Source of the DNA: Clostridiales bacterium
GTDB lineage: Bacteria > Bacillota > Clostridia > Christensenellales > CAG-138
DNA: 64,000 nucleotides
Direction: 5' to 3'
NCBI GenBank assembly: GCA_012517905.1
Contig: JAAYUE010000083.1
Span: 9,070-73,069, forward strand
Shown here: positions 7,545-37,171 of the stretch, in pieces
How the letters are laid out: each line of letters starts with the position of its first letter
How positions within the stretch are numbered: position 1 is the first letter of the stretch
The notes under the pieces: generated by a model
The model's database searches: none
The model's input: the letters and a program-made list of their open reading frames with translations, nothing else
Told to the model about the DNA's origin: nothing
Made by a program: the position numbers and the translations under genes

Positions 7545-7545
7545 C

Positions 7546-16566: not shown

Positions 16567-16571
16567 CCCTG

Positions 16572-21570: not shown

Positions 21571-21580
21571 TTGAAACAAA
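21571..21580 (+). promoter_or_regulatory. TTGAAACAA motif copy 1 (candidate regulator binding site)
   Basis: TTGAAACAAA sits 18 nt upstream of the -35 of the regulator-gene promoter. The same core recurs twice upstream of the TRAP operon. Confidence 0.35.
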
Positions 21581-21597
21581 TCCGAGTATATATTTTA

Positions 21598-21626
21598 TTG
21601 ACATCAGACGTAATGGGCGATAAAGT
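21598..21626 (+). promoter_or_regulatory. Promoter of PrpR-like regulator gene
   Basis: TTGACA, 17-nt spacer, TAAAGT. Confidence 0.45.
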
Positions 21627-21670
21627 GTCATTATGAAACACGAAGCGAACGATGATTGAGGGAGCCGAAG

Positions 21671-23422
21671 ATGGAAAGAAAAAAAGTACTTGTGATTGCG
21701 CCGTATGCGGGACTGAAAGAGTTGGTGTCGTCCATCGCGGGGGAGTTCGCGAACTATGAGATACAGGCCGTTCAGGGAAACCTTGAAAACGCCTTGCCCT
21801 ATGTAAAACGCGCGGAACTCGAGGGCGTCTCTATCATTCTTTCGAGAGGCGGCACCGCAAAGCAGCTGGCGAAGCACACCTCGATCCCCGTTCTGAATAT
21901 TCCAGTCTCCGGCTACGATGTTTTGCGATCCATATCGCTTGCAAAAACATTCTACGGAAAGCGGGCGGTCGTGGGATTTGAGTCGATTACACACGGATAC
22001 CAGGCCGTCAACACGCTTTTGGACACGGACATGGAGATCGTTACGATCAACGAGGAAGACGAACTGCCGGCCGTGCTGGACTACATGAAAAGCAAAGGCG
22101 TACGGCTGATCATCGGCGACGTGGTTACCGTAGACTACGCAAAAAAGAAGAATTTTGTCGGCGTATTGGTTACGTCCGGCGAGGAGAGCGTGCGCGACGC
22201 GCTCGAACAGGTCGGATTTCTGGAAAGCCATATCGGATACTATAAAAAGCGCGCTGAATTACTCGAGCAGGCTTTGAACCGCGAACCCAATCGGGAAACG
22301 CTCATCTTTTCGGATCAGGGCGACCTTCTGTTTCAGACGGCATCCCTCGACGAAACGCTTGCCAACGCGCTGAAATCCCGGATGGCGGACCCGGGATTTC
22401 TGGCCCGCTTCCCGGATTATCTGCCCGACTCGAAGGGGCAGGTCTTCGCGGTGACGGCTCAGACCTGGCATCAAAACGGGACAACGGCTACAATATTTAC
22501 CGCACAAGAGATTCAAACCCGGTATCAGGGCATCCGGATCCGGCCCCTGTCCGAGTTTGGCACCCTGTCTTACAACCTCTTTATGAACAACGATCCGGAC
22601 AGCATGAATGCAATATCGCTTGCGGAGTCGTTGTCGAAGACCAATCGCTCGGTCTTGATTCAGGGCGAACCCGGCGTCGGGAAAGACTGGTTCGGCATTC
22701 TGATGCATCTGAACACGGCCGGCATGGAGTCCGGGCTGATGATTCTGGACTGCTCTCTGCTGACGAAAGAAGATATCGATCATCTCTTCGTGCATTACGC
22801 TCTGCCGGATTCGCACAAAAGAACGCCGGTCCTGCTCAACCATCTGGACATGCTGAGCAAACACGGGCAGGCGGAGCTTTTGTCCTATTCGAGCCGGTTT
22901 GAGCAGTTTCGGTTTGTAGCCACATCGAGAAAGAGCATCACGGCGATGGGCGAGGAAGGAAGTTTTCTGAAAGAGCTGATTTCCGCTTTCGAATTTTCCG
23001 CAATCTATCTCCCGTCCGTACGGGAACATCAGGAAAACATAGAAAACCTGTGCAGCATCGCAATCAGCAGCGCAAATGAAAGCCTTGGAAAGCAGGTGGT
23101 CGCGCTGGAAAACGATGCGATGGAGTTGTGCAAAAATTACCGCTGGCCCGGCAATTTAAAGCAGATCTGCAGCGTAATGGAGGATGCGGTCCGGGTGACC
23201 GAGGCGTCTTTTATTTCAAAATCGACGGTCCAGTCCTTTATTTCGGAGGATAAGCAGACAAAGGACACCGTGATCTACATTTCCAAAAACAAGACGCTGG
23301 ACCAGTTTGAAAAGGAAATCATCCTCTCCGTTCTGCAGGACGAGGACATGAACCAGAGCAGGGCGGCCGACAGACTGGGGATCGGGCGCAGCACAATGTG
23401 GAGAAAGCTCAACCAGATTTAG
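21671..23422 (+). CDS. PrpR-N domain / AAA+ (sigma-54-interaction-like, degenerate) / Fis-HTH transcriptional regulator
   Basis: N-terminal KKVLVIAPYAGLKELV...ILSRGGTAKQL (PrpR_N-like). Walker A GEPGVGKD. YRWPGNLKQI. C-terminal HTH NQSRAADRLGIGRSTMWRKL. No GAFTGA loop visible. Confidence 0.85.
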   Translation: MERKKVLVIAPYAGLKELVSSIAGEFANYEIQAVQGNLENALPYVKRAELEGVSIILSRGGTAKQLAKHTSIPVLNIPVSGYDVLRSISLAKTFYGKRAVVGFESITHGYQAVNTLLDTDMEIVTINEEDELPAVLDYMKSKGVRLIIGDVVTVDYAKKKNFVGVLVTSGEESVRDALEQVGFLESHIGYYKKRAELLEQALNREPNRETLIFSDQGDLLFQTASLDETLANALKSRMADPGFLARFPDYLPDSKGQVFAVTAQTWHQNGTTATIFTAQEIQTRYQGIRIRPLSEFGTLSYNLFMNNDPDSMNAISLAESLSKTNRSVLIQGEPGVGKDWFGILMHLNTAGMESGLMILDCSLLTKEDIDHLFVHYALPDSHKRTPVLLNHLDMLSKHGQAELLSYSSRFEQFRFVATSRKSITAMGEEGSFLKELISAFEFSAIYLPSVREHQENIENLCSIAISSANESLGKQVVALENDAMELCKNYRWPGNLKQICSVMEDAVRVTEASFISKSTVQSFISEDKQTKDTVIYISKNKTLDQFEKEIILSVLQDEDMNQSRAADRLGIGRSTMWRKLNQI

Positions 23423-23447
23423 GCGGTATCGTAATCTAGCGCTTTAG

Positions 23448-23459
23448 ATTGTTTCAAAA
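23448..23459 (-). promoter_or_regulatory. TTTGAAACAAT motif copy 2 (inverted orientation)
   Basis: Plus strand reads ATTGTTTCAAAA, the reverse complement of TTTTGAAACAAT. Confidence 0.35.
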
Positions 23460-23611
23460 TAATACATCAAATCTAACACATCTTGCATTTTTCCTCTTGC
23501 TTGTGCTTCATTTTGAATATATAATGATGTCGCAAGTTTGATGATTCCTTTTGGCTGCAAAAATAAGTCATATCGGTTTTTTCTCGGAATCGCAGCCTAT
23601 GATGATTCGCA

Positions 23612-23628
23612 TTTGAAACAATTTCAAA
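23612..23628. promoter_or_regulatory. TTTGAAACAAT motif copy 3 within the palindrome TTTGAAA-caa-TTTCAAA
   Basis: 7-bp perfect inverted arms, about 180 nt upstream of the dctP start. Confidence 0.4.
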
Positions 23629-23807
23629 AAGAAACAGCGGTTCTGCAGAGCTGTTGTGGACGCCCCGTCATGTTTTCGATATCAGCGGTTCATCATCGCT
23701 ACAATTGACACGGCAAGGAGGAGATGCGGCCAATAATTTTCATTTCAAGGGAGTGGGGAACAGGTTATACCCAAAATTCGATCGACAAATTAAGAGGAGG
23801 AGACCAA

Positions 23808-24872
23808 ATGAAAAAAGTGTTATCAATGTTGCTGGTGCTTGCTTTAGCCCTTTCGGTGGTCGGATGCACCGCTGCCGAAGTAAGCAGCACGGGCACGGAA
23901 TCTGCGACCGCCACAGAACCCGCCGCAACGGAAGCCGCCGCTCCAGCTGCTGATTCCGGAAAGGTGTACGATCTGAAGCTGTCCCTGGTGCAGTCCGCAA
24001 ACGAGCCGTTTGGCGAACTGGTCGAGATTCTGAAAAGCAGGATCGAAGAGTACACGAACGGTCGAGTCAAGTGCGAAGTGTACTACAACGGCGAACTGGG
24101 CGATAACGTAGACACCTGCGAGGCGATTCTCCAGGGCGCCAATATCGTTACGTTCCCGACGTTCGACTTCTATGCCCCTTACATTCTGGATGTTTCCATT
24201 CTGGACGGCCCCTTCTTCTTCCAGTCTCCGGATGAGCTGGCAAAGCTGGAAGCGTCCGACTGGTGGGCCGAGCAGGTCCAGAAGATGGAAGACATCAACC
24301 TCTGGTATGGCGGCGCAATGTACCTGGGCGCGCGCAGCCTCCTTCACAACGTGCCGGGCGCAAAGCTTCCCGAGGATTTCAAGGGTCAGGTCATGCGCTC
24401 CGCCTCCACGACCATGCGGCATGCGATGTGCGAAGCCATCACCGGCAACGTCGCGACCATTGCCTGGTCCGAAATCTACTCGGCGCTGAGCACCGGCGTC
24501 GCCGAAATGTGCGAAGCCCCGCTGGGCTCCATCGTGAGCACAAAGATCTATGAGGTCTGCCGGTATATTACCCTTGACGAGCACATCTACGCATTCCAGG
24601 CGCCCTGGATCGCCAAATCCTGGGTCGACGCATTGCCCGCGGATGTCCGCGAGGGCTTTGAGAGAGCCGTAAAAGAAACGTGCGCGGAATCGGTCGACTA
24701 CATCAATCAGAGCGAAGCGGAATACAGAGCGCTCCTGGAGAGCGAAGGCGTCACCTTTATCGAAGTGGATGATAAGGACGCCTGGGTCGAGGCGACCAAA
24801 TCCGCATACGACTCGATTCAGTGGGAAGAGCCCGATCTGTATCAGAAGTGCCAGGCGATCCTGGGCCGCTGA
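23808..24872 (+). CDS. dctP: TRAP transporter substrate-binding lipoprotein (DctP family)
   Basis: Track ORF trimmed to ATG 23808 after GAGGAGGAG. Lipobox VVGC. Followed by DctQ and DctM genes. Confidence 0.87.
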   Translation: MKKVLSMLLVLALALSVVGCTAAEVSSTGTESATATEPAATEAAAPAADSGKVYDLKLSLVQSANEPFGELVEILKSRIEEYTNGRVKCEVYYNGELGDNVDTCEAILQGANIVTFPTFDFYAPYILDVSILDGPFFFQSPDELAKLEASDWWAEQVQKMEDINLWYGGAMYLGARSLLHNVPGAKLPEDFKGQVMRSASTTMRHAMCEAITGNVATIAWSEIYSALSTGVAEMCEAPLGSIVSTKIYEVCRYITLDEHIYAFQAPWIAKSWVDALPADVREGFERAVKETCAESVDYINQSEAEYRALLESEGVTFIEVDDKDAWVEATKSAYDSIQWEEPDLYQKCQAILGR

Positions 24873-24881
24873 TGTCAACGA

Positions 24882-24974
24882 GCGGGGAAAGGCTTCCGTC
24901 GATCACGCTGCGGGAACGAAGACCATCGGAACATATTCCGCAGCGCGGTTGGAACGAGCGGAGGCCTTCCCCGC
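24882..24974 (+). other. Intercistronic nested stem-loop between dctP and dctQ
   Basis: Outer stem GCGGGGAAAGGC (24882-24893) pairs with GCCTTCCCCGC (24964-24974). Inner stem CGCTGCGG (24906-24913) pairs with CCGCAGCG (24938-24945). Confidence 0.5.
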
Positions 24975-25025
24975 CTTTCCGTACTGTGACCGGTATAGCT
25001 TTTCAATGGCTATGGAGCATGTATT

Positions 25026-25532
25026 ATGAAAGATCTTGATGCAAAGATTACGAAGGGGATCGAAACGCTGCTTTCAACCATCGGCATATTCTGCCTGATC
25101 GCAATGATTTTCTGCATTACGACAAACGTGCTGATGCGCGCCGTCTTCGGAAAATCGATTGCATGGTCGGAAGAATACGGGTACTTATTCTTCTGTTATG
25201 CCGTGTATGTCGGAACCGCCTTCTGCTACAAGCAAGGGGAGTTGATCTCCATCAACTCCGTCGTGCTGCTGCTGCCCAAAGCAGTTCAAAAGGGGATTTT
25301 CTATTTTGATCGGTTTCTGCTTACGGCAGTCAACATATATCTGTTGATTCTTTCCGTGAAATTCACGATGAACGCCGCAACGAAAATGTCGCCGCTCATG
25401 CGGATTCCTTATTCCTATATCGACGCGTGCCTTGTCGTCATGTTTACCTTTATCGTCCTCTTCTCATTCAGGGATTTAATCCGTGCCATATTGAAGCTGG
25501 ACGACATGGAAACCGAGCGCAGAGCGGAATAA
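25026..25532 (+). CDS. dctQ: TRAP transporter small permease (DctQ family)
   Basis: 168-aa protein with four hydrophobic segments, located between DctP and DctM. Confidence 0.85.
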   Translation: MKDLDAKITKGIETLLSTIGIFCLIAMIFCITTNVLMRAVFGKSIAWSEEYGYLFFCYAVYVGTAFCYKQGELISINSVVLLLPKAVQKGIFYFDRFLLTAVNIYLLILSVKFTMNAATKMSPLMRIPYSYIDACLVVMFTFIVLFSFRDLIRAILKLDDMETERRAE

Positions 25533-25550
25533 GGCGGAGGTAGTATTTTT

Positions 25551-26828
25551 ATGAATTTCTGGCCGTTAATTTTAGTGGTCGTACTGGTTTTGATCAACGT
25601 TCCCGTATCCTATGCCCTGCTGATTTCTTCCGTGTTTTATTTCAGCGCATTCGATACGGGTCTGGACGTCGCTTTGATATTCCAGCGGCTGATCGCTCAG
25701 TGTCAATCGTTCGCGCTGTTGGCCGTTCCGTTTTTCGTGACGGCGGGCGTGATCATGGAGTATGCCGGAATCGGGAGACGGTTGATGGATTTCGTCGGGC
25801 TGTTCACCGGCAGAACCCGCGGCGGTTTGGCTCATGCAAACATATTGCTCAGCACATTCATGGGCGGATGTTCCGGCTCGGCAAACGCGGACGCCGCGAT
25901 GGAAGCGAAGATGCTGATTCCGCTCATGAAAGAGAGCGGCATCGACGTCGGCTTTTCGGCCGGCGTAACGGCGACTTCGGCCTGCATTACGCCCATCATT
26001 CCGCCGGGCATCGTTCTGATCATCTACGCCACCATTTCAGGCGTATCCGTCGGAGACATGTTCCTTGCCGGATATCTTCCGGGCGCACTGATGTGCATTG
26101 CGCTGATGATTACCGTATCCATCATTGCGAGAAAGCGCGGATACCCGCCCACCCGCGACAAATGGCCCAACTTTAAGGAGATCGTCCGGATTACAGGTTC
26201 GGCGGTCTGGGCGCTCGTGGTTCCTCTGGGGATTCTCATGGGGCTGCGCATGGGCGTGTTTACCCCGACGGAAGCCGGCGCGGTCGTCGTCGTATACTGT
26301 CTGCTCGTGGGGTTGTTTATCTACAGAGATTTAAAGCCGAAAATGCTGCCGCGCCTTTTCCTGGATTCGCTGCGCACAACCGCCAGCGTCATGTTCATCG
26401 TCGCCGGTGCGGCCGCTTTCAGCTATTACCTGAGCTGGGAACGAATCCCGCAGTTCATCTCCGAGATGCTCTTAGGGGTAACGACGAATAAATACGTCTT
26501 CCTGCTGATTGTCAACGTGTTTCTGCTGATTTGCGGCATGTTTCTGGAGTGCACCGCTGCGCAGATCATGGTCATCCCGCTGCTCGTGGGTGCGGCGCAG
26601 ACGCTCGGCATCAACCTCGTGCATTTCGGCATTCTGACCAGCATCAACATCGTCATCGGCGGATGCACGCCTCCCTTTGGAACCTATATGTTCACCGTTT
26701 GCGCCGCAAGCGGCACTTCGATTCCAAGGTATACGAAGGCGACATGGCCGTTGATACTCACGCTGATCATCGTATTGTTTTTAGTTTCGTATATACCGGG
26801 TATCTCATTGCTACTGCCGGGTCAATAG
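25551..26828 (+). CDS. dctM: TRAP transporter large permease (DctM family)
   Basis: 425-aa polytopic membrane protein. GGAGG RBS. Confidence 0.9.
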   Translation: MNFWPLILVVVLVLINVPVSYALLISSVFYFSAFDTGLDVALIFQRLIAQCQSFALLAVPFFVTAGVIMEYAGIGRRLMDFVGLFTGRTRGGLAHANILLSTFMGGCSGSANADAAMEAKMLIPLMKESGIDVGFSAGVTATSACITPIIPPGIVLIIYATISGVSVGDMFLAGYLPGALMCIALMITVSIIARKRGYPPTRDKWPNFKEIVRITGSAVWALVVPLGILMGLRMGVFTPTEAGAVVVVYCLLVGLFIYRDLKPKMLPRLFLDSLRTTASVMFIVAGAAAFSYYLSWERIPQFISEMLLGVTTNKYVFLLIVNVFLLICGMFLECTAAQIMVIPLLVGAAQTLGINLVHFGILTSINIVIGGCTPPFGTYMFTVCAASGTSIPRYTKATWPLILTLIIVLFLVSYIPGISLLLPGQ

Positions 26829-26841
26829 AAAGCGAGAAACC

Positions 26842-27768
26842 ATGTCGTCTCAAAGCAGCAATCAGATTCGCGGCCTGATTAGCGACATCCAGCGGTTTTC
26901 GATTCATGACGGGCCCGGCATCAGAACTACGGTCTTTCTGAAAGGCTGCCCTCTGGCCTGCTACTGGTGCCACAATCCGGAGACCCAGGCGGCGCATCCG
27001 CAAATCATGATCCACCGCAACCTGTGTATCCGCTGCGGAAACTGCGTGAACGCGTGTCCGGTCGGATGCATCCGGCTTGACGCGGACGGCGTACGGATCG
27101 ATCGAAGCAAATGCCTGCAATGCGGAGCCTGCGCGCGCGCTTGCCCGGCCGAGGCGCTGAAGCTCGACAGCCGGTGGATGACGCCCGCCGAAACGCTCAG
27201 CGTCCTCCGGGTGGACGCCTCCTTTTATCAGCAATCGGGCGGCGGGGTGACGTTTTCCGGCGGCGAGGCGCTGACGCAGATCGACTTTCTTCAGGAAACC
27301 CTCCGCCTTTGCAAAAGCGAAGGCTACCACACGACGGTGGATACTTCGGGTTACTGCGAGCAGGCAACCCTGGAAAGGATTTTGCCGTTTACGGACCTGT
27401 TTCTTTACGACCTGAAAGCCGGCGACGACGCGACGCATGTCCGCGGAACGGGGAAACACCTGCAGACCATCCACGATAATCTGCGGTTCCTCGTGCAAAA
27501 AGGAGCGGCCATCTATATCCGCATTCCGATCATCCCCGGGTTCAACGACAACGACGAGGAAATGGGCAAGATCGCGGCGTTTCTCACCCCGATGGCGAAT
27601 GCCATAGCGCGGGTCGAACTGCTTCCCTTTCACCGGCTGGGGATCGTCAAATACGAGGCGCTGGACCGCGCATACAAAGCCGCGGATCTCGCCCCGGTTT
27701 CGCAGGAGCGCATGCGTCGGCTTGCCAGGCCGTTTTACACGGCGTTTGATCAGGTTGAGATTGGGTGA
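26842..27768 (+). CDS. Glycyl-radical enzyme activating protein (radical SAM) with two auxiliary ferredoxin-type clusters
   Basis: GPGIRTTVFLKGCPLACYWCHNPE contains the CX3CX2C motif. Auxiliary cluster motifs CIRCGNCVNACP and CLQCGACARACP. Confidence 0.92.
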   Translation: MSSQSSNQIRGLISDIQRFSIHDGPGIRTTVFLKGCPLACYWCHNPETQAAHPQIMIHRNLCIRCGNCVNACPVGCIRLDADGVRIDRSKCLQCGACARACPAEALKLDSRWMTPAETLSVLRVDASFYQQSGGGVTFSGGEALTQIDFLQETLRLCKSEGYHTTVDTSGYCEQATLERILPFTDLFLYDLKAGDDATHVRGTGKHLQTIHDNLRFLVQKGAAIYIRIPIIPGFNDNDEEMGKIAAFLTPMANAIARVELLPFHRLGIVKYEALDRAYKAADLAPVSQERMRRLARPFYTAFDQVEIG

Positions 27769-27794
27769 AAATACAAGCATAAGGAGGAGCATCT

Positions 27795-30071
27795 ATGTAT
27801 AGCAAGGTTCAGTTGCCTGTTCGTATCAAAGAACTTGAAGACGAACTGTATTCGATTCGGACGCAGACATGCTACGAGCGGGCCAAGATCATAACCGGCT
27901 CCTATCAGAAGACCGAGGGACTTCCCACGGTGTTGAGGCGCGGCCGCGCGTTTCAGGACATTTTAACGCAGATGCCCCTCTATATTCGCGAAAAGGAACT
28001 GATCGTCGGTTCGCGCAGCTCGCATCTGGGCTGGGAGACCAGCTATCCGGAGTACGATCTGGAGGACCACGACGCCTGGCCCGAGGAAGTCCGCGCATAC
28101 TGGACGGGAAAAACGATACACGACCTGAGCAATCAACTCTATCCCCCGATCGTCCCCATATCGGAAGCGGAACACGTCTCCGGGTATACCACGGGGACCA
28201 AGACCGGCATCGGGCACGGAATCGCCGCGTATGACAAGGTTCTGCGCATCGGTTTTCGGGGCATCCTTGAGGAACTGGATGCCGCGCTGCAAACGGCGGG
28301 CGACGACCAAAGCGGCGTCGATTTTCTCAATGCGGCAAAAAGCGCCTGCACCGGAATGATCGCCTGGGCAAACCGATATGCGGATTTGGCCGAGAATCTG
28401 GCAAAAACGGCGAACGCCGCGCGCGCAAAGGAACTCGCCGACATCGCCGCCGTGTGCCGGCACGTGCCGGAGCATCCCGCCCGCAGCTTCAGAGAGGCGC
28501 TTCAGAGCTTTTGGTTCGTCCATGTCGCGCTGCACATCGAGCAGAAGGGCTGGTCGATTTCCACCGGGCGGTTCGACCAGTACATGTATCCATACTATCG
28601 GGCGGACATCGAAAAAGGTTTGATCACCGACGGGGAAGCGTTTGAACTGCTCCTGAATCTCTGGGTCAAATTCATGGAGAATATCGAAGGCGAGCTGAAA
28701 AAAACGCAGTTTCAAAACCTGACGCTCGGCGGACAGGATCAGGCCGGAAACGATCTTTCGAATGCGTTTTCCCACATGTGTCTGGATGCGACGATGCTGA
28801 CGGGCTATACGCAGCCGGCGCTGTCCGTTCGCTGGCACAGCGCCGTCGACCACGACTTCTGGGCGCATGCGATGCGCACGATCGCGACCGGGGTGGGAAT
28901 GCCCGCGCTGTTCAACGACGAAATCATCATGAAAGAGCTGGAGGCGCACGGCACCTCCGCAGACGACACGTGGAATTACGCCGTTGTCGGCTGTGTGGAA
29001 CCGGCCATCCCCGGAAAACAGATGGGGATGACCGCCGGCGGACATGTAAATGTCGCAAAAGCGCTGGAGCTGGCGTTGTTCAACGGGCGCTCGCTCTTCA
29101 CGGGCGTGCAGATGGGCCCCGCCACCGGCGAAGCGGCCGCGTTTTCCTCATTTGATCAGCTCTGGGAGGCATATGAAAAGCAGTCGCGCTATCTGATGGC
29201 GGTGACGCTGCTGACGGGCAATGTGGCGGGGACGGTGCAAAAGCTGCTGGGCCATTGCCCGATGCACTCCTGCCTGCTGGACGATTGCATTGCCAGAAGG
29301 CGCGATATGGTCGACGGCGGCGTTCGATACAGCCTTTCCGGGACGGCGGTGATTGGAACGCCCGACGCCTGCGACGGGCTGCTTGCGATCAAAAAGCTGG
29401 TATTTGAAGAAAAAAGATACACCCTGCAGCAGATCTGCCGGGCGATGGAAGCCAACTTCGAGGGTTATGAGGAGATGCGGCAAATCCTGCTGCATCAACC
29501 CTGCCGCTTCGGAAACGACATTCCGGAAGCGGATGAAATGGCAAACAAGGTCAACCGCGTCCATTCGGAGTTCTGCGTCGCGCATCCGGACATGCGCGGC
29601 GGGCACTATACCTGCGGAATCTGGCCCGTCAACGATCACGTCGCCGCCGGAAAATTCACCGCCGCGCTGCCCGACGGCCGGCACAAAGGCGCGCCTCTGG
29701 CCGACGGCGTGGGCGCCTGCCACGGCGCAGACGTCAACGGCCCGACCGCGCTGCTCAAATCCGTGGCGCGGCTGAACAACGTTCGCGATTGGCAGGGCGG
29801 AAACACCTGCAACATCAAGTTTTCGAAGATGAGCATCCATTCCCCGAAGGGAATCGAAACGATGGGCGATTTGGCGGAGACTTTCATGAAGCTGGGCGGG
29901 CAGGAACTGCAGATTAACGTCGTAGACGCAGCGACGCTCCACAAGGCGCAGGAGAATCCCGAGGAGTACGCCAATCTGGTCGTTCGCGTCGCAGGGTACA
30001 GCGCGTATTTTGTCACCCTGAGCAGGAGCATACAAGACGAGGTAATCGCGCGCACGGAGCAGGCGATTTGA
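27795..30071 (+). CDS. Glycyl radical enzyme, 1,2-eliminase-type active-site signature, 758 aa, substrate unknown
   Basis: C-terminal glycyl radical motif VVRVAGYSAYF (Gly734). Thiyl loop VVGCVEPAIPG has Cys400 and Glu402 and no Cys-Cys pair. AAGGAGGAG RBS. Confidence 0.92.
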   Translation: MYSKVQLPVRIKELEDELYSIRTQTCYERAKIITGSYQKTEGLPTVLRRGRAFQDILTQMPLYIREKELIVGSRSSHLGWETSYPEYDLEDHDAWPEEVRAYWTGKTIHDLSNQLYPPIVPISEAEHVSGYTTGTKTGIGHGIAAYDKVLRIGFRGILEELDAALQTAGDDQSGVDFLNAAKSACTGMIAWANRYADLAENLAKTANAARAKELADIAAVCRHVPEHPARSFREALQSFWFVHVALHIEQKGWSISTGRFDQYMYPYYRADIEKGLITDGEAFELLLNLWVKFMENIEGELKKTQFQNLTLGGQDQAGNDLSNAFSHMCLDATMLTGYTQPALSVRWHSAVDHDFWAHAMRTIATGVGMPALFNDEIIMKELEAHGTSADDTWNYAVVGCVEPAIPGKQMGMTAGGHVNVAKALELALFNGRSLFTGVQMGPATGEAAAFSSFDQLWEAYEKQSRYLMAVTLLTGNVAGTVQKLLGHCPMHSCLLDDCIARRRDMVDGGVRYSLSGTAVIGTPDACDGLLAIKKLVFEEKRYTLQQICRAMEANFEGYEEMRQILLHQPCRFGNDIPEADEMANKVNRVHSEFCVAHPDMRGGHYTCGIWPVNDHVAAGKFTAALPDGRHKGAPLADGVGACHGADVNGPTALLKSVARLNNVRDWQGGNTCNIKFSKMSIHSPKGIETMGDLAETFMKLGGQELQINVVDAATLHKAQENPEEYANLVVRVAGYSAYFVTLSRSIQDEVIARTEQAI

Positions 30072-30127
30072 ATACATGCCGTCCATCGGCAAAATGGATC
30101 ATTGCATTTTTATGAGGGGAACAGGTT

Positions 30128-31159
30128 ATGAGAAAAGTGATCGCAATCAGCATGGGAGACCCCGCGGGAATCGGCGGCGAGATCGTCGTCAAAGCGCTCA
30201 TGCAAAAAGAAATCTATGACAAGTGCGTCCCTGTCGTCGTGGGCGACTACGAAGCCATCCGCGACGCCAACGAGTTCTGCCATGCAAATCTGAAGATCAA
30301 TCGAATTTCGGAGGTGTCCGAGGCAGTCGGGGAAGCGGGAACGATCGACTTGATCGACATGGGGTTTCTCGCCCCGAACAGCTGGAAATACAAGCAGGTG
30401 CAAAAGCTCTGCGGAGAAGCGTCTTTCCGGTATGTGGAAAAGGTCATACAACTGGCCTTGAGCAATCAGGTGGACGCCACCGTCACCGGCCCCATCAATA
30501 AGGAGGCCATCAATCTGGCGGGGCACCACTATTCCGGCCATACCGAAATCTACGCCGACCTTACCCACACCAAGGATTACGGCATGCTGCTCATCAGCGA
30601 GCATCTTCGCGTCATTCACGTCTCCACGCACGTATCCATGCGCCAGGCCTGCGATTCCATCACGACGGAACGCGTACACGCCGTCATCAAGCTGGCGGAT
30701 TCCGGCATGCGGTCCCTGGGATTCGAGCACCCGAAAATCGGCGTCTCCGGATTCAACGCGCATTGCTCGGAAAACGGGCTGTTCGGAAACGAGGAAGCCC
30801 GCGCGATCATCCCCGCCATCGAGCAGGCGAAGCGGGAGGGGATCGACTGCGACGGGCCGGTTCCTCCGGATACCGTGTTTGTCAAATGTCTGGCGGGCCA
30901 GTATGACGTCGTAGTGGCCATGTATCACGACCAGGGGCATATCCCGCTGAAGTTGGACGGATTCAAGCTGGACCTGAACACGAACAAATATACCTCCATG
31001 AGCGGCGTGAACTGCACCATCGGTCTTCCGATCATCCGGACGTCCGTGGATCACGGCACGGCGTTCGGAAAAGCCGGAGAAGGAAGAGCGAACGCGCAAT
31101 CGCTGATCGACGCGATCGACACGGCGATATTGATGGCAAATAACAAATCAAGGAGATAA
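30128..31159 (+). CDS. PdxA-family NAD(P)-dependent 4-phospho-hydroxyacid dehydrogenase (PdxA2-like)
   Basis: MGDPAGIGGEI, YSGHTEIYA and AMYHDQGHIPLK motifs. Confidence 0.88.
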   Translation: MRKVIAISMGDPAGIGGEIVVKALMQKEIYDKCVPVVVGDYEAIRDANEFCHANLKINRISEVSEAVGEAGTIDLIDMGFLAPNSWKYKQVQKLCGEASFRYVEKVIQLALSNQVDATVTGPINKEAINLAGHHYSGHTEIYADLTHTKDYGMLLISEHLRVIHVSTHVSMRQACDSITTERVHAVIKLADSGMRSLGFEHPKIGVSGFNAHCSENGLFGNEEARAIIPAIEQAKREGIDCDGPVPPDTVFVKCLAGQYDVVVAMYHDQGHIPLKLDGFKLDLNTNKYTSMSGVNCTIGLPIIRTSVDHGTAFGKAGEGRANAQSLIDAIDTAILMANNKSRR

Positions 31160-31164
31160 AAACA

Positions 31165-32226
31165 ATGGAACGGAAAACGATGAAAGGCGTCCTGAAAAGC
31201 CTGCCGCAGGAAGGCGCAGAATACCGCGAAGACCTGCCGATTCCGGAAGTGGGCCCGCGGGATATTCTGGTAAAAGTGCAGGCGGCGGCGATCTGCGGCA
31301 CCGATCAGCACATCATCAACTGGACCGAGTATGCAAAGCAGCGCCTCACGCTCCCCATGGTGTTTGGGCATGAGTTCGCGGGCGACGTGGTCGCCGTCGG
31401 AAGCGACGTACACGAGCTGAGCGTGGGCGACCGCGTTGCGGGAGAGACCCATATCCCCTGCAACCACTGCTACATGTGCAAGACAAACCGGCGGCATAAC
31501 TGCGCAAATATGAAGATCATCGGCGTGCATGCTCCCGGCGCTTTTGCCGAATACATCTCCTTTCCGGCGGACTGCGCCTACAAGCTCGACGACGATATCA
31601 GCTATGAAATCGGGGCGATGCTGGAACCGATGGGCGTCGCCGTGCACGGCGTATCCGCGGGCGAGGTGAAAGGCTGCAATGTGCTGATCTTCGGCTGCGG
31701 GCCGATCGGCTTGATGGCCGTCGGCGCCGCCAGGGCGATGGGCGCGAAAAAGATCTTCGCCGCGGACGTTTTCGACGCAAAGCTCGAAATCGCAAAGGTG
31801 ATGGGCGCGGATGCCGTGCTGAACACCCGGGCGATGAGCGCGGACGAAGCCCGCGCAAAGCTGCTGGAATACACCGACGGCATGGGCGCGGACGTCGTGA
31901 TCGACTACACGGGAAACGCCGCCGCCCTTCAGCAGGGGTTTGGCATGCTTCGGAAAAACGGAACGTTCATCATGGTCGGACTGCCGGACAAGCCGATTGC
32001 GCTGGACTTGACGGACGCCATCGTCTATAAGGAGGCGACCGTAAAGGGCGTTACCGGAAGGCTGATGTACGAAACATGGGACGAATGCATCGATATCCTG
32101 AAAAACAGCGAGTTTTCGATGGAGCCGGTCACCGGCGGCGTCTATCCGCTTTCAAACTATATGGACGCTTTCAACGCGATCTTTTCCGGCGTCCCCGGAA
32201 AAATGCTCCTGATCCCCGGAAAATAA
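31165..32226 (+). CDS. Zn-dependent alcohol dehydrogenase, L-threonine-3-dehydrogenase-like
   Basis: AAICGTDQHIINW, GHEFAGDVVAVG, structural-Zn segment CNHCYMCKTNRRHNC, and GRLMYETW as in the Tdh family. AAGGAG RBS. Confidence 0.85.
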   Translation: MERKTMKGVLKSLPQEGAEYREDLPIPEVGPRDILVKVQAAAICGTDQHIINWTEYAKQRLTLPMVFGHEFAGDVVAVGSDVHELSVGDRVAGETHIPCNHCYMCKTNRRHNCANMKIIGVHAPGAFAEYISFPADCAYKLDDDISYEIGAMLEPMGVAVHGVSAGEVKGCNVLIFGCGPIGLMAVGAARAMGAKKIFAADVFDAKLEIAKVMGADAVLNTRAMSADEARAKLLEYTDGMGADVVIDYTGNAAALQQGFGMLRKNGTFIMVGLPDKPIALDLTDAIVYKEATVKGVTGRLMYETWDECIDILKNSEFSMEPVTGGVYPLSNYMDAFNAIFSGVPGKMLLIPGK

Positions 32227-32261
32227 GGACGTTGCCGAAGCGAAGAACGAAAGGAAACTGT

Positions 32262-33290
32262 ATGAGTAATATGATGCGTACGGCAATGGTTACGAAGCCA
32301 TTCACTGTCGAGATCGTTGAAAAGCCCGTCCCCAAATACGGGCCGGACGATGTGTTGATCAAGGTAAAGGTCGCCGGCGTGTGCGGGTCCGATCTGCAGC
32401 TGTACAGGGGGACCCACCCGTTCCGGCAGCCGCCGGCGGTGTTGGGCCATGAAGTGGCGGGCGACGTGATCGCCGTGGGGAGCAACGTTACGAAGCTGCA
32501 GGTCGGCAACAGGGTCGCCGTGCTTCCGCACATCGAGTGCGGAACGTGCGAGTTCTGCCAAGCGGACATGCAGAATCTCTGCGTCAACAAAACCGTTCCC
32601 GGAACGCCCAAGTGGGAAGGCACTTTTGCGGAGTATTTCTCCGCGCCCGAAGCAAAGACCTACAAAATCGCAGACGGCGTGAGTTACGAAATGGGCGCTT
32701 TGGTGGAGCCGCTTGCCGTAGCCGTGCACGCCGTCAGCCGCGTGTTATCCGACAAAAGAGGGTCCATCGCGATCCTCGGCTGCGGCACGATCGGACTGCT
32801 GACCTTGATGGTGGCAAAAGAATTCGGATACAAGAGGATTTACTGCACCGACACCGCGCCCTTCAACAACGAAATGGCGTTGAAGTGCGGGGCGAACATG
32901 GCGCTGAATCCGCTGGAAACAGACGCGGTGGAAGCCTTCCTGAAGGACAACGGCGGCGGCATGGACGTTACATTTGTCGCGGCCGGAAGCCCCGACATCA
33001 TCAACCATGCGTCGCGGCTGACCAAGCGTCTGGGTGAAATCGTGCTGATCTCCATGATCACCAAGGATATTCCGGTCTACACCTACGGCTTTGTGTACAA
33101 CGAGCAGACCCTGCGGGGGGCGATGACCTATCGCAATGCGGACTATGAGAAGGCCATGGAGCTGATCAACGGCGGGCTGGACCTCTCCATGTTCGTAACG
33201 CAAAACCTGCCTCTCTCGGAGGCGGGGTCCGCTCTGGAGATGCTGAACAACAAAAGCGGCGACATCATCAAAATAATGATCAACATGTAG
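32262..33290 (+). CDS. Zn-dependent alcohol/polyol dehydrogenase (sorbitol-dehydrogenase-like)
   Basis: Track ORF 32076..33290 trimmed to ATG 32262. GVCGSDLQLYRG, GHEVAGDVIAVG, CGTCEFCQADMQNLC, and Rossmann segment ILGCGTIG. Confidence 0.85.
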   Translation: MSNMMRTAMVTKPFTVEIVEKPVPKYGPDDVLIKVKVAGVCGSDLQLYRGTHPFRQPPAVLGHEVAGDVIAVGSNVTKLQVGNRVAVLPHIECGTCEFCQADMQNLCVNKTVPGTPKWEGTFAEYFSAPEAKTYKIADGVSYEMGALVEPLAVAVHAVSRVLSDKRGSIAILGCGTIGLLTLMVAKEFGYKRIYCTDTAPFNNEMALKCGANMALNPLETDAVEAFLKDNGGGMDVTFVAAGSPDIINHASRLTKRLGEIVLISMITKDIPVYTYGFVYNEQTLRGAMTYRNADYEKAMELINGGLDLSMFVTQNLPLSEAGSALEMLNNKSGDIIKIMINM

Positions 33291-33304
33291 AAAGATAAAA
33301 GGAC

Positions 33305-34594
33305 ATGATAAAACTTGTTGTAATTGCAGATGACTTTACGGGGGCGCTTGATACGGCGGTTCAATTTGCCAAGCGTGGAATCAAAACGCTTGTTACGGCT
33401 GACGCGACCGTAGATTTGGCTTCTTTCGACGAAGAAATCGAGGTCCTGACAATCGATATTGAAAGTCGGCATTTGAATAGTGAAGCAGCTTACGCCCGGG
33501 TGCAAAATACGGTTGCATTCGCAATGAGTTTATCGCCTCAGTGCATCTATCTCAAGACGGATTCCACGCTGAGGGGCCCGATCGGCGCAGAGTTCGCTGC
33601 GCTGTTGGACGAGACGAAGTCCGGAGCGCTGATGTTCATTCCGGCGTTTCCCAAGAATGGGCGCACGACAAAGAACGGCATTCAGTATGTCGACGGCATT
33701 CCCCTGTCCGACACGATTTTTGCAAACGACCACATCAACCCCGTCGTTGTCAGCCGGGTCAAGGCCGTCATCTCCAGCGGAACGAACAAGAAGGTGGTCG
33801 AAGTCCCCTTTTCGGAGAAGCATACGGAGATATCCCTGGAGGGAAGCCCGGACGGCGTAATCTATGTGTTCGACGCGGAAACGGACGAGCACCTGAGCAA
33901 GATCGGCGAAAACCTGTTCCGGCAGGGAAAATGCGGCGTGCTGTCGGGCTGCGCGGGATTTGCCGAGATCCTTCCCGACATATTCGAGCTCAGACAGCAT
34001 CCCATCGAACGATCGAAGACCCCGGGCAACGTCCTCATCGTGGTCGGAAGCGCAAACCAGATCTCCCTGCAGCAGATTTCGCTCGGAGAACTGTATGGGT
34101 TCGAGCTGTATTCCCTGTCTCCCGAGGAGAAAATCGGCACGACGGAGGAATGCGACGCCAAGCGGACGGCTCTGCTGAACAAAGCGAAGGAATCCTTGAT
34201 GGACAGTGGCAAGGTCATCGTCGCAACTTTGACCAGCAAGGACGACATCGACATCACCAACACGTATGGCGAGCAGGTCGGCATTCCCGCCGACCAAATC
34301 CCGGCGCTGACCGCCAACAACATCGCCTCCATCACCAAAGAACTCATCGGCAACGTGCCGATTGACAACCTGGTGATATTTGGCGGCGACACCCTGATGG
34401 CGATCATGGACGCGATTGCCTGCAAAGGGATCATCCCCTATGAGGAAATCGCCCCGGGCGTCGTAGCATCCAAAATACTGGGCGACAAGAACAATTTCAC
34501 GCTGGTCACAAAGGCCGGCAGCTTCGGCGAAAAGGACATCATCAGCAAGATATACCATTATCTTCAGAGCAGCGAGAATCCGTATCCGGCATGA
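33305..34594 (+). CDS. Four-carbon acid-sugar kinase family protein (DUF1537; OtnK/DtnK-like)
   Basis: N-terminal VVIADDFTGALDTAVQFAKRG hallmark. 429 aa, two-domain size typical of the family. Confidence 0.85.
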   Translation: MIKLVVIADDFTGALDTAVQFAKRGIKTLVTADATVDLASFDEEIEVLTIDIESRHLNSEAAYARVQNTVAFAMSLSPQCIYLKTDSTLRGPIGAEFAALLDETKSGALMFIPAFPKNGRTTKNGIQYVDGIPLSDTIFANDHINPVVVSRVKAVISSGTNKKVVEVPFSEKHTEISLEGSPDGVIYVFDAETDEHLSKIGENLFRQGKCGVLSGCAGFAEILPDIFELRQHPIERSKTPGNVLIVVGSANQISLQQISLGELYGFELYSLSPEEKIGTTEECDAKRTALLNKAKESLMDSGKVIVATLTSKDDIDITNTYGEQVGIPADQIPALTANNIASITKELIGNVPIDNLVIFGGDTLMAIMDAIACKGIIPYEEIAPGVVASKILGDKNNFTLVTKAGSFGEKDIISKIYHYLQSSENPYPA

Positions 34595-34634
34595 GCAAGG
34601 CTCCATCCGGGGGCCCGCCCGCGGCAAAGCAACG

Positions 34635-34672
34635 AAACGACGAGACCACCCGTTCGGGTGGTCTCGTCGTTT
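34635..34672. terminator. Strong bidirectional terminator between convergent genes
   Basis: AAACGACGAGACCACCC-gttc-GGGTGGTCTCGTCGTTT, a perfect 17-bp stem. Confidence 0.85.
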
Positions 34673-34680
34673 CAGGTCGT

Positions 34681-35817
34681 CTATTTCCTCTGCCCCGTTG
34701 CCGAGAGCAATCGAAACAGGTTTTCCACGGTCAGTCGATAGTCCTTCTTGCTGCGCAATCTCGCCTCGCTGAAGGGAATGGCAAGTTGGTTGGTGCTGAA
34801 GATGGCCGTGATGCCCTCAGCATATGCCTCCTCGATGTCGTCCCCGACATCGCCCACGACCGCGAGCACGGGGATGCCGGCGCGCTTGGCCCTGCGCGCG
34901 ACGCCGATGACCACCTTGCCGCGCAGGCTCTGGCTGTCCAGCTTTCCTTCACCGGTGATCACGAGGTCCGCGTCGCTGATGCGCGCCTCGAAGCACACCG
35001 TGTCCAGCACCGCCTCGATGCCCGGCTGCAGACGCGCGCCGAAAAACGCCACCATGCCCGCGCCCATCGCGCCCGCGGCGCCCGCGCCCGGCAGGTCCGC
35101 GACCCGCAGGCCGAGTTCGCGCGAAATCGCCTCGTCCAGCGCGCGCAACTGCGCGTCCAACTCTCGCACCAGCTCCGCGTCCGCTCCTTTTTGCGGGCCG
35201 AACACATGCGCCGCGCCGCGCGGGCCGTGCATGGGATTGTCGATGTCGCACATGGCGACGACCTCGATCCCCTGCAGCAGGCGCAGCGCTTCCGAATTGT
35301 CGATACGCGCAATTCTCGAAAGCGTCCCGCCCGTCGGAACGAATTCCTTCCCGCTTTCGTCCAAAAACTTCGTCCCCATCGCCGCCGCCGCGCCGCAGCC
35401 GCCGTCGTTCGTCGCGCTGCCGCCGAGACCTAAAATAATCTTCTTCGCGCCGTGTTCCAGTGCGTGCCGGATCAGTTCGCCAACGCCATAGGTCGTCGTG
35501 CGGGCCGGGTCTTTCTCGTCCCCTACCAGCGGCAGCCCCGCCGCCGCGGCCATCTCGACGACGGCCGTGTCGCCAAACCGGCCATAAAACGAAGAGAGTC
35601 GCTCAAACAGCGGCCCCGCCGCCTCGACCTGCACCTTTTCGCCGTCCAGACACTCCAGAAAGCTATCCACCGTACCTTCCCCGCCGTCCGCAACCGGCAG
35701 GCCGACGACTTCGCAGGCCGGAAAAAACCGCCTCGCCTCCTCGGTCACGATGGCGCAGATTTCGCTCGAGGTAATCGAGCCTTTGAACGAGTCGGACACG
35801 ACGGCAATCTTCTTCAT
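34681..35817 (-). CDS. glxK: Glycerate kinase (GlxK/GarK family)
   Basis: DSFKGS, GLGGSATNDGGCG and ITGEGKLDSQSLRGKV motifs. Confidence 0.9.
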   Translation of the reverse strand: MKKIAVVSDSFKGSITSSEICAIVTEEARRFFPACEVVGLPVADGGEGTVDSFLECLDGEKVQVEAAGPLFERLSSFYGRFGDTAVVEMAAAAGLPLVGDEKDPARTTTYGVGELIRHALEHGAKKIILGLGGSATNDGGCGAAAAMGTKFLDESGKEFVPTGGTLSRIARIDNSEALRLLQGIEVVAMCDIDNPMHGPRGAAHVFGPQKGADAELVRELDAQLRALDEAISRELGLRVADLPGAGAAGAMGAGMVAFFGARLQPGIEAVLDTVCFEARISDADLVITGEGKLDSQSLRGKVVIGVARRAKRAGIPVLAVVGDVGDDIEEAYAEGITAIFSTNQLAIPFSEARLRSKKDYRLTVENLFRLLSATGQRK

Positions 35818-36049
35818 CTTTTTCCTCCCGCGGCGCGCTTGCTTCAGCCGCCTCTGGCAGGCCGCATCTTCGGCGAACCATATAATAGCATGATTGTATC
35901 AGATTTCACGCCGAAGAAAATATTCTGCCGAACAAAAATAAGCGGATTCTTGCGTGCATTGTGTTTTTTCTGCGCGCTTGCTATACTGCAAATAAGGCAT
36001 ATTTCCGCCCGATCGAACCCCGATACAAGCCGCAGAGGAGGACAACGCA

Positions 36050-37171
36050 ATGCAGGTGGTCGCAGTGCGCGGCAGACAACAGATGCGCGATTTTGTGCGC
36101 GTTCCGCAGCAAATCTTCGGCAAACATCCGTGCTATGTGCCGCCGATCTGGATGGACGAGGCGCACGCATACTCGGACAAGGCGAACCCCATCCTGAAAA
36201 ACTCGGATTTTGAACTGTTTCTCGCGCTGGACGACGCGGGCAGGCCCGTCGGGCGCACCATCGCGTATATCGACCATACGTTCAACCGCTTTTACAACGC
36301 GCGCATGGGCTTTTTCGGCGCGTTTGAGTGCATAGACGATCCGGCGGCGGCTGGGCTTCTCATCGGCGCGGCGGAGGATTGGCTCGCCGCGCGCGGCATG
36401 GACGCCGTTCGCGGCCCGATCCACCCCGTTGCGGAAAACTGGGGGTTCGTCTTCGAAGGGTACGACAGCCCGCCCGTCTACATGTCCCCTTGGAACCCGG
36501 CGTATTACCATCCGTTTTTCACCGGCGCCGGCTACGGCAAGGCAAAGGATCTGCTCGTGTACGAGGCGGATATGGCCAAGGGCTACGAAATTCCCCGGCG
36601 GTACGACGACTTCCCCGCGCGGTTTATGACGCGCTATCCGGGCGTCTCCATCCGCCGCCTCGACATGAAGCGCATCCACGACGATGCGCGCGCCATCTGG
36701 GAGATCTCCAACACCTCTCTGGCGGACAACTGGGGATACGTTCCGCTCGAACTGCCCGTCATGGAGGACATGCTCAAAAAACTCCGCATGATCGTCGATC
36801 CCGACGCGGTCTGGATGGTGGAAAACGAAGGAAAACCCGTCGGCTTCTGCCTCGGGTTTCCGGACATCAACATCCTGCTCAAGCGCATCGGCGGGCATAT
36901 GCTGCCGCTCGGCTGGGCGCGGCTGCTGCTCGGCGTGAAACAACTGCGGGACTACCGGCTCTTCGGCCTCGCCGTCACGCCGGAGTGGCACAAGCGCGCG
37001 CTCGACGCGCTCATGTACATCCACCTCTATCAGAACCTGAAGGCAAAGCGCATCCGCATGGAGGCAAACTATATTTTAGAGGACAATCTGCACATCAAAA
37101 ACGCCCTCGAGCGCCTCGGCATGCGGCACACGAAGACCTATCGCATCTACGAAAAACCGCTTGCGCAATGA
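36050..37171 (+). CDS. Uncharacterised GNAT-fold acyltransferase-like protein
   Basis: GAGGAGG RBS. Pattern FVRVPQQIF...PCYVPPIWMDE...GRTIAYID...MGFFGAFECIDD resembles a roughly 370-aa GNAT-like family that I recall only from annotation, so the assignment is tentative. Confidence 0.5.
   Translation: MQVVAVRGRQQMRDFVRVPQQIFGKHPCYVPPIWMDEAHAYSDKANPILKNSDFELFLALDDAGRPVGRTIAYIDHTFNRFYNARMGFFGAFECIDDPAAAGLLIGAAEDWLAARGMDAVRGPIHPVAENWGFVFEGYDSPPVYMSPWNPAYYHPFFTGAGYGKAKDLLVYEADMAKGYEIPRRYDDFPARFMTRYPGVSIRRLDMKRIHDDARAIWEISNTSLADNWGYVPLELPVMEDMLKKLRMIVDPDAVWMVENEGKPVGFCLGFPDINILLKRIGGHMLPLGWARLLLGVKQLRDYRLFGLAVTPEWHKRALDALMYIHLYQNLKAKRIRMEANYILEDNLHIKNALERLGMRHTKTYRIYEKPLAQ

Follow-up and report, generated by a model that had tools for sequence, protein, structure and literature searches.

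The 64,000-nucleotide stretch of DNA analysed here (hereafter the window) comes from contig JAAYUE010000083.1 of the metagenome-assembled genome of a Clostridiales bacterium, and its subject is a run of ten genes in which a glycyl radical enzyme (GRE) and its activase are encoded between the genes for a tripartite ATP-independent periplasmic (TRAP) transporter and those for a set of enzymes of the acid-sugar type. All ten genes lie on the plus strand between 21.6 and 34.6 kb and their domain content was verified with Pfam and NCBIfam (Table 1), which bears out the co-directional genes and domains given in the initial annotation. The same annotation described a tight, operon-like packing with long gaps only before dctP and between dctP and dctQ, and this agrees with the gaps computed from the coordinates, which are in gene order 385, 153, 18, 13, 26, 56, 5, 44 and 14 nt. 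A terminator scan found no convincing terminator inside the ten-gene unit. Since the activase and GRE genes, themselves separated by 26 nt, are located between dctM and pdxA with gaps of 13–56 nt and no terminator, the pair is probably co-transcribed with the surrounding genes in this genome.

Table 1. Genes and signals of the ten-gene unit and its downstream boundary, with positions in the window.
Feature	Position	Strand	Basis or remark
PrpR_N / AAA+ / HTH_8 (Fis-type helix-turn-helix) regulator	21671..23422 (open reading frame opens 21656, TTG)	+	Pfam, NCBIfam
DctP, TRAP solute-binding lipoprotein	23808..24872	+	PF03480, E = 1.4e-47
Hairpin, long	24882..24974	+	dctP-dctQ spacer; -66.3 kcal/mol, z = -3.69 vs shuffles
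DctQ, TRAP small membrane subunit	25026..25532	+	PF04290
DctM, TRAP large membrane subunit	25551..26828	+	PF06808, E = 1.8e-108; TIGR00786 above cut-off
GRE activase (radical SAM)	26842..27768	+	TIGR02494, 341 vs 174-bit cut-off
GRE, 758 aa, CXE eliminase-type	27795..30071	+	PF02901, E = 2.4e-172; PF01228, E = 1.2e-25
PdxA2-type NAD-dependent oxidative decarboxylase (cassette core)	30128..31159	+	PF04166
ADH1, Tdh-like medium-chain Zn-dehydrogenase (cassette core)	31165..32226	+	NF003808
ADH2, second medium-chain Zn-dehydrogenase (accessory)	32271..33290 (start about 32271)	+	ADH_N, ADH_zinc_N
DUF1537 four-carbon acid-sugar kinase (cassette core)	33305..34594	+	SBD_N + NBD_C
Bidirectional terminator hairpin, 19-bp stem	34633..34674	.	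Terminator scan; common to operon and convergent glycerate kinase gene
Glycerate kinase	34681-35817	-	Pfam; converges on operon

The GRE, which is identical to protein GX417_13290, has the PFL-like and Gly_radical domains of the superfamily with an activase gene nearby, and it also carries the mark of the CXE class, a Cys-x-Glu motif on the Cys loop, which is typical of eliminases and isomerases (PMC13450708). The loop of the window protein reads GCVEP, and its Cys400 and Glu402 are invariant in 40 of 40 members of the clade to which the enzyme belongs. The glycine radical motif, VRVAGYS, holds Gly734, likewise invariant in the clade, and His141 is the equivalent of His164 of glycerol dehydratase (GD). 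The characterised CXE enzymes are GD, propanediol dehydratase (PD), HpfG, HypD, HpyG, HpzG, CutC, IslA/IseG, HpsG, HplG, YbiW and PflD, and according to the same review of June 2026 whole clades of GREs are still unassigned (PMC13450708). The activase has the CX3CX2C motif CPLACYWC together with two ferredoxin-type cluster motifs.

The window GRE reaches none of the NCBIfam equivalog cut-offs for characterised GREs: HpsG (526 vs 1000), HypD (486 vs 1100) and CutC (438 vs 1050) are missed, as are the remaining models, including HpfG, PflD and the decarboxylases, all with scores far under the cut-offs. The score for the PFL2/GD subfamily model TIGR01774 is also under its cut-off (605.6 vs 678.2 bits). 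By alignment and Foldseek, the nearest characterised enzymes are Roseburia PD (5I2A/5I2G), GRM3 propanediol dehydratase (PDH) and Clostridium butyricum GD (1R8W), at 34–37% identity, and an AlphaFold2 model of the window GRE (pLDDT 91.4) shares their fold with TM values of 0.94–0.95; the GRM3 enzyme is the one solved as 9RCO (PMC12756279). Going from GD to the window GRE, Asp447 becomes Ala414, His281 becomes Trp253, Tyr339 becomes Phe306, Tyr640 becomes Trp610 and Ser642 becomes Val612. The substrate-contact set of GD and PD, which from the residue roles in the structure papers we take to be His164, Ser282, Asp447, Tyr339 and Tyr640, is thus incomplete: His164 and Ser282 are kept, and the other three residues are replaced. 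In HpsG, IseG and IslA the sulfonate group is anchored by an Arg/Gln/Arg triad (PMC13450708). In the alignment, Arg183, Gln187 and Arg672 of HpsG, which form this triad, correspond to Lys136, His141 and Gly608 of the window GRE, so that the triad is absent. The placement of the enzyme outside all characterised clades, which the initial annotation had put forward, therefore stands, as no equivalog cut-off is reached, the identity to PD and GD is low, Asp447 is replaced by Ala and the sulfonate triad is missing.

The clade itself comprises proteins of ~755–765 aa which share 50–60% identity and fall into more than 120 sequence clusters. An alignment of its members (alignment A1) shows an invariant pocket made up of His141, Trp253-Ser254, Gln307, Cys400-Val-Glu402, Thr413, Gly415-Gly416-His417, Trp610-Pro-Val612 and His615. 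Phe306 and Ala414 are almost invariant as well; Trp253, the loop Thr413-Ala-Gly-Gly-His417, Trp610 and His615 are specific to the clade. Besides the window, 14 loci with a clade member were available (L001–L005, the P0018 locus, L006–L010 and L169–L171), the scan of a genome collection having yielded at least five members (L006–L010). These loci were searched by tblastn with eleven window proteins over 10 kb, and the P0018 locus was judged by its gene list. No PdxA, DUF1537 or TRAP gene was found within 10 kb of the GRE gene in any of the 14; a distant Zn-dehydrogenase of 28–30% identity lies about 7 kb from the GRE gene in L170. The neighbourhoods are mixed and include glycoside hydrolases, ribosomal and RNase genes, GGDEF proteins, beta-lactamase-fold proteins and shikimate genes. 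An activase gene adjoins the GRE gene in 7 of the 14 loci, and the window activase is 44–48% identical to the activases encoded directly upstream of the clade GREs in L002, L004, L008, L169, L170 and L171. A carbonyl reductase is encoded within about 6.5 kb in five loci, as an aldo-keto reductase in L001, L002, L003 and L006 and as an iron-containing alcohol dehydrogenase (Fe-ADH) in L170. As only the activase and the carbonyl reductase recur in these mixed surroundings, the GRE and its activase appear to behave as a self-contained two-gene unit.

Two further observations concern GREs in other genomes. After the clade member in L001 (12828-17314) come genes for a fucose-isomerase-like protein, an FGGY kinase and a protein with an Apiosidase (GH140-like) domain, which could together be a utilisation locus for a branched or rare sugar of the apiose type. 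A different GRE family of ~830 aa, 35–37% identical to the window GRE, is present in about 70 loci (L016–L085) from Blautia, Lachnospiraceae, Oscillospiraceae and Christensenellaceae, and in most of them a medium-chain Zn-dehydrogenase is encoded 4–7 kb from the GRE.

The genes on either side of the activase-GRE pair belong to a different setting. The nearest solved relatives of the PdxA-family protein are 2hi1 (PdxA2) and 6e85 (D-threonate 4-phosphate dehydrogenase), both with E values of ~1e-90, vs ~1e-50 for PdxA proper; the PdxA2 equivalog model NF002891 is not reached (350 vs 583 bits) and the older pdxA model TIGR00557 is passed (329.5 vs 290). The kinase has the two-domain architecture of its family (PF07005, E = 1.2e-48; PF17042, E = 5.9e-20) and scores under the equivalog cut-offs for D-threonate kinase, its best NCBIfam model (214 vs 450 bits), and 3-oxo-tetronate kinase (123 vs 350). 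ADH1 is under the cut-offs for L-threonine 3-dehydrogenase (NF003808, 358.8 vs 380; TIGR00692, 349 vs 458), with the catalytic and structural zinc ligands invariant (alignment A2). DctP has the lipobox LSVVGC, its gene is preceded by the ribosome-binding site AAGAGGAGG, and among solved structures the protein is closest to TRAP binding proteins; with the binding protein and the small and large membrane subunits all encoded, the transporter is complete.

A scan of metagenomes with the Tdh-like ADH recovered 80 loci, which together with L086–L088 gives 83 loci (81 distinct, 0.85 Mb). Of these, 52 are at least 6 kb long, and 36 of the 52 (34 distinct) hold ADH1 with PdxA and/or the kinase. The closest relatives of the kinase, at 45–46% identity, are encoded in L086 and L088, where the window gene order is kept: L086 reads PrpR-type regulator-PdxA-ADH1-ADH2-kinase and L088 reads PdxA-ADH1-ADH2-kinase, with identities to the window proteins of 76–79% for PdxA, 66–71% for ADH1 and 61–64% for ADH2. 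Neither of the two loci has a TRAP or a GRE gene. L090 has the order regulator, PdxA, kinase, ADH2, ADH1, a URO-D-like gene and DctPQM, and its DctP, DctQ and DctM are 56%, 44% and 68% identical to those of the window. An orthologous transporter thus accompanies a cassette without a GRE, and we therefore assign the window TRAP genes to the cassette. ADH2 is encoded in five distinct cassette loci (L086, L088, L089, L090 and L129) and missing from most others. The importers of the relatives are of the TRAP type in L090, L092, L107, L120, L129, L134, L139 and L168, and of the TctAB or ABC type in others. Also encoded in these loci are regulators of the PrpR or GntR type, HIBADH-like proteins and TIM-barrel proteins that resemble xylose isomerase. 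The tetronate enzymes Ltn2D and OtnI reportedly belong, in the 2016 work of Zhang et al., to the latter two families. No GRE match at E <= 1e-3 was found in the 83 loci. On gene content and sequence likeness, what the regulator, DctPQM, PdxA, the two Zn-dehydrogenases and the kinase appear to form is a conserved acid-sugar cassette of the tetronate type. The part of the initial annotation that described PdxA and the DUF1537 kinase as acid-sugar enzymes fed by a TRAP or carboxylate importer is in keeping with the PdxA2-like best matches and with the importers of the related cassettes.

The place that the activase and GRE genes occupy in the window is filled differently in L107, where genes for an Fe-ADH-like protein, EtfB and EtfA lie between dctM and pdxA (5694-8613), which suggests that the cassette accretes varied accessory redox modules. 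The URO-D-family gene of L090 (11058-12131) is located between ADH1 and dctP of the nearest TRAP-bearing cassette, and in a Poribacteria metagenome-assembled genome a second gene of this family (L009, 506-1495) precedes a GRE-clade member by three genes.

The initial annotation had taken the GRE as a step of one pathway with the kinase and PdxA. This is not what the neighbourhoods show: none of the 14 GRE-clade loci and none of the 81 distinct loci recovered with ADH1 combine the two, and in the genome-neighbourhood comparison the GRE pair and the pdxA-kinase genes occur together only in this genome among the sampled loci. A literature search likewise found no paper that joins a GRE to DUF1537 and none that links a GRE to PdxA, TRAP or tetronate genes. 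Elsewhere the full cassette is encoded with no GRE nearby (L086, and L090 with an orthologous TRAP transporter), and the GRE is therefore no conserved or obligatory step of it. With about even confidence, we propose that the region is a composite operon of two evolutionarily independent modules, in which the GRE keeps the reaction of its own clade. Most likely, the GRE is at most a co-expressed side activity or redox sink beside the acid-sugar route.

Judging from what is known of the families, the first module would start with the TRAP system importing a polyhydroxy acid, either a four-carbon one of the tetronate type or one closely related to it. One or both Zn-dehydrogenases would then oxidise the acid, or epimerise it via a keto intermediate, the kinase would phosphorylate a terminal hydroxyl and the PdxA2-type enzyme would oxidatively decarboxylate the phosphate ester to dihydroxyacetone phosphate (DHAP). 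DUF1537 kinases are known to act together with PdxA2 or OtnC-type enzymes in C4 acid-sugar systems that lead to DHAP (PMC12994016), and PdxA2 has been placed in organic-acid catabolism (PMC9997740). The described DtnK and PdxA2, Ltn2D/OtnI/3OtnK/3OtnC and 2OtnK/2OtnC routes to DHAP resemble the window cassette in that a DUF1537 kinase gene adjoins that of a PdxA2-type dehydrogenase; HIBADH-like genes, xylose-isomerase-like genes and genes for carboxylate importers also accompany relatives of the cassette. However, the constant Tdh-like medium-chain Zn-dehydrogenase of the cassette, which is often accompanied by a second one, is not part of the described routes, whose dehydrogenases are of the HIBADH type (Ltn2D) or SDR type (Ltn3D), and the kinase and PdxA of the window remain under the equivalog cut-offs.

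The second module would be the activase-GRE pair, which elsewhere forms a small island in unrelated places and here would have come to lie between dctM and pdxA. By analogy with the CXE eliminases, from which its chemistry is inferred (PMC13450708), the GRE would most likely catalyse a radical 1,2-elimination on a diol, a polyol or a sugar-derived alcohol to give a carbonyl product. A thiyl radical would abstract a hydrogen beside a hydroxyl group, the neighbouring leaving group would be lost with the assistance of Glu402 and His141, and the aldehyde or ketone released would then be reduced by a reductase.

Several observations weigh against two independent modules. The pair separates the transporter genes from the enzyme genes midway in the operon, the gaps being 13, 26 and 56 nt, its GC content at third codon positions (GC3, 0.745) is like that of its neighbours, and no insertion scars or flanking repeats surround it. 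All of this would also be expected of a functionally integrated gene. A recent mobile insertion of the pair was considered and found no support, flanking repeats and an anomaly in GC or GC3 both being absent. The core may accept variable feeder enzymes, since Fe-ADH with EtfBA in L107 and the URO-D-like protein in L090 fill the same slot. The window GRE is a long-branch member of its clade, with the nearest relative 60% identical, and directly after His141 it departs from its relatives: residues 141–145 (window 28215-28229) read His-Gly-Ile-Ala-Ala, and the clade reads His-Val-Ile-Val-Asp. Among 40 clade members, Gly142 occurs in one, Ala144 in two and Ala145 in one, the other 39 having Asp at position 145. 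On sequence grounds these substitutions could mark a changed substrate; in the structural model, position 145 may merely cap a helix. The sampling is thin, with 14 GRE-clade loci, and the searched collections hold no close relative of the organism (best GRE match 60%, best kinase match 46%). A clade member might in this lineage have been recruited as a feeder to a TRAP-fed acid-sugar funnel, carrying out an oxygen-sensitive C-O or C-X cleavage whose product would proceed to triose phosphate, which we regard as rather unlikely.

In an integrated new pathway of this kind, the substrate of the GRE would be either the acid that enters through the TRAP system or an intermediate of the route. The enzyme might, for instance, dehydrate a larger polyhydroxy acid, or a substituted one, by radical chemistry or break another C-X bond in it, and the product would go via the Zn-dehydrogenases, kinase and PdxA to triose phosphate. 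The operon position with short gaps and no terminator, a base composition with no sign of recent arrival, the other accessory enzymes in the transporter-core slot of L107 and L090, the substitutions at positions 142, 144 and 145 beside the catalytic-site His and the placement of the GRE outside the characterised clades all speak for it. Yet GRE and cassette never co-occur in the 14 clade loci or the 81 distinct loci recovered with ADH1, the cassette is complete without a GRE in L086 and, including an orthologous TRAP transporter, in L090, and the window GRE retains the pocket that is invariant in its clade, whose members occur in contexts other than acid-sugar ones. Moreover, no conserved Arg or Lys is present at the anion-anchor positions of HpsG, Lys136 being variable in the clade and Gly608 invariant, and by our own reasoning the products of a simple radical dehydration of a tetronate would not be used by a kinase acting on a terminal hydroxyl followed by PdxA. 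We consider an integrated pathway possible, if doubtful. A narrower proposal, that the GRE is a B12-independent 1,2-propanediol, glycerol or ethylene-glycol dehydratase which serves as an NADH sink together with a reductase and whose operon position is accidental, agrees with the best sequence and fold matches (PD, GRM3 PDH and GD), with Phe306 and Val612, which PD likewise has where GD has Tyr339 and Ser642, and with the aldo-keto reductase or Fe-ADH gene found close to the GRE gene in 5 of 14 clade loci. The glycine radical motif, the Cys-x-Glu loop, the equivalent of GD His164 and a dedicated activase with two extra clusters are also common to these enzymes and the window GRE. However, the identity is just 34–37%, the TIGR01774 score is under the cut-off, PD and GD have 787–843 aa vs about 760 aa, and the replacement of Asp447 by Ala and of His281 and Tyr640 by Trp, together with the Thr-Ala-Gly-Gly-His loop and His615, which are invariant in the clade, points to a different pocket. 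Neither microcompartment genes nor a 1,3-propanediol dehydrogenase context is present, and many clade loci lie amid glycoside hydrolases, which indicates a sugar-derived substrate. Such a dehydratase is therefore improbable. The microcompartment-type PD or choline system was rejected, as neither shell nor aldehyde-dehydrogenase genes occur in the roughly 45 open reading frames (ORFs) of the window; as the initial annotation had stated, no microcompartment, sulfite-reduction or 1-pyrroline-5-carboxylate reductase partner is found among them.

The remaining proposal, of a GRE that is a C-S lyase and a TRAP system that takes up a sulfonate, for example isethionate or 2,3-dihydroxypropane-1-sulfonate, draws on other anaerobes in which TRAP importers supply the IslA and HpsG systems and the transporter genes lie beside those for the GRE and activase as they do in the window, and on HpsG being a moderately strong sequence match to the window GRE. 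In contrast to the IslA/IseG and HpsG/HpfG systems, the positions of the sulfonate triad are taken by Lys136, His141 and Gly608, no sulfite reductase, sulfite exporter or other gene of sulfite reduction is encoded in the window, and the TRAP transporter belongs to the cassette, being orthologous to the one on the GRE-free PdxA/kinase cassette of L090. A sulfonate lyase was accordingly rejected for want of the triad and of sulfite genes, which leaves it extremely improbable, and a sulfonate as the imported substrate, which the initial annotation had allowed for, does not hold. A looser parallel is provided by YbiW and PflD, the GRE isomerases of 1,5-anhydrohexitol 6-phosphate, which are CXE enzymes with carbohydrate-derived substrates encoded in sugar-utilisation loci, much as many members of the window clade are encoded amid glycoside hydrolases. 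However, the identity is about 30–32%, and neither phosphotransferase-system or aldolase partners nor any sign of a phosphate-binding site were seen.

The operon is headed by a regulator whose domains agree with the initial annotation and whose start does not: instead of at 21571, the ORF opens at 21656 (TTG) or 21671 (ATG), the ATG at 21671 being the likely start. A promoter-like site lies ahead of it at 21598-21626. In the translation the AAA+ domain is degenerate, with Walker A (GEPGVGKD) kept and the GAFTGA loop missing, and the Pfam model Sigma54_activat matches residues 312–374 only (26 bits). No -24/-12 site (TGGCA-N6-TTGCW) was found upstream of dctP (23423-23807). Because both the GAFTGA loop and the -24/-12 element are absent, control by sigma-54 was rejected and the regulator is probably sigma-54 independent. 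A PrpR-type regulator is encoded beside the cassette in L086, L089, L090, L104, L108, L110, L122, L132, L156 and others, and the homologues in L086 and L087 have a full Sigma54_activat match, unlike the window regulator. The long hairpin in the spacer between dctP and dctQ has no U-tract and is likely an mRNA stabiliser or a partial attenuator that would set how much binding protein is made relative to the membrane subunits.

Downstream, the operon meets a glycerate kinase gene on the opposite strand. The latter was rejected as a member of the system and is treated as an unrelated neighbour because it has no match in the 83 recovered loci. The plus-strand ORF 34591-35433 was rejected as an eleventh operon gene and is taken as no gene, since it has no Pfam match and overlaps the strong glycerate-kinase match on the opposite strand. 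Between the glycerate kinase and GH127-like genes, two overlapping ORFs on opposite strands (35981-37171; 373 aa on the plus and 347 aa on the minus strand) are found, neither with a Pfam match. The wider surroundings consist of plant-polysaccharide genes, with GH28-like, GH65-HAD fusion and GH127-like proteins and ABC and MFS sugar transporters. In the fusion (13663-16866, minus strand), a protein of 1067 aa, a complete GH65 glycoside phosphorylase with N-terminal, central and C-terminal domains is followed by a HAD-family domain at the C-terminus, which may be a partner of the phosphorylase resembling beta-phosphoglucomutase.

Whether or not the modules cooperate, the analysis sets apart two enzyme systems. 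One is a widespread clade of CXE GREs of ~760 aa, with an invariant pocket unlike that of the characterised dehydratases and often encoded amid glycoside hydrolase genes. The other is a core of a Tdh-like Zn-dehydrogenase, PdxA2 and a DUF1537 kinase, which is present in metagenomes of anaerobes, including those of the human gut, and is not a published tetronate route. The juxtaposition of the cassette with a GRE pair is unique so far, and tight operon packing taken alone over-predicts membership of a pathway. If the two modules do cooperate, acid sugars would join the substrates of GREs, with the window enzyme as the first GRE to act on an acid sugar, and the organism would possess an anaerobic route without a described counterpart.

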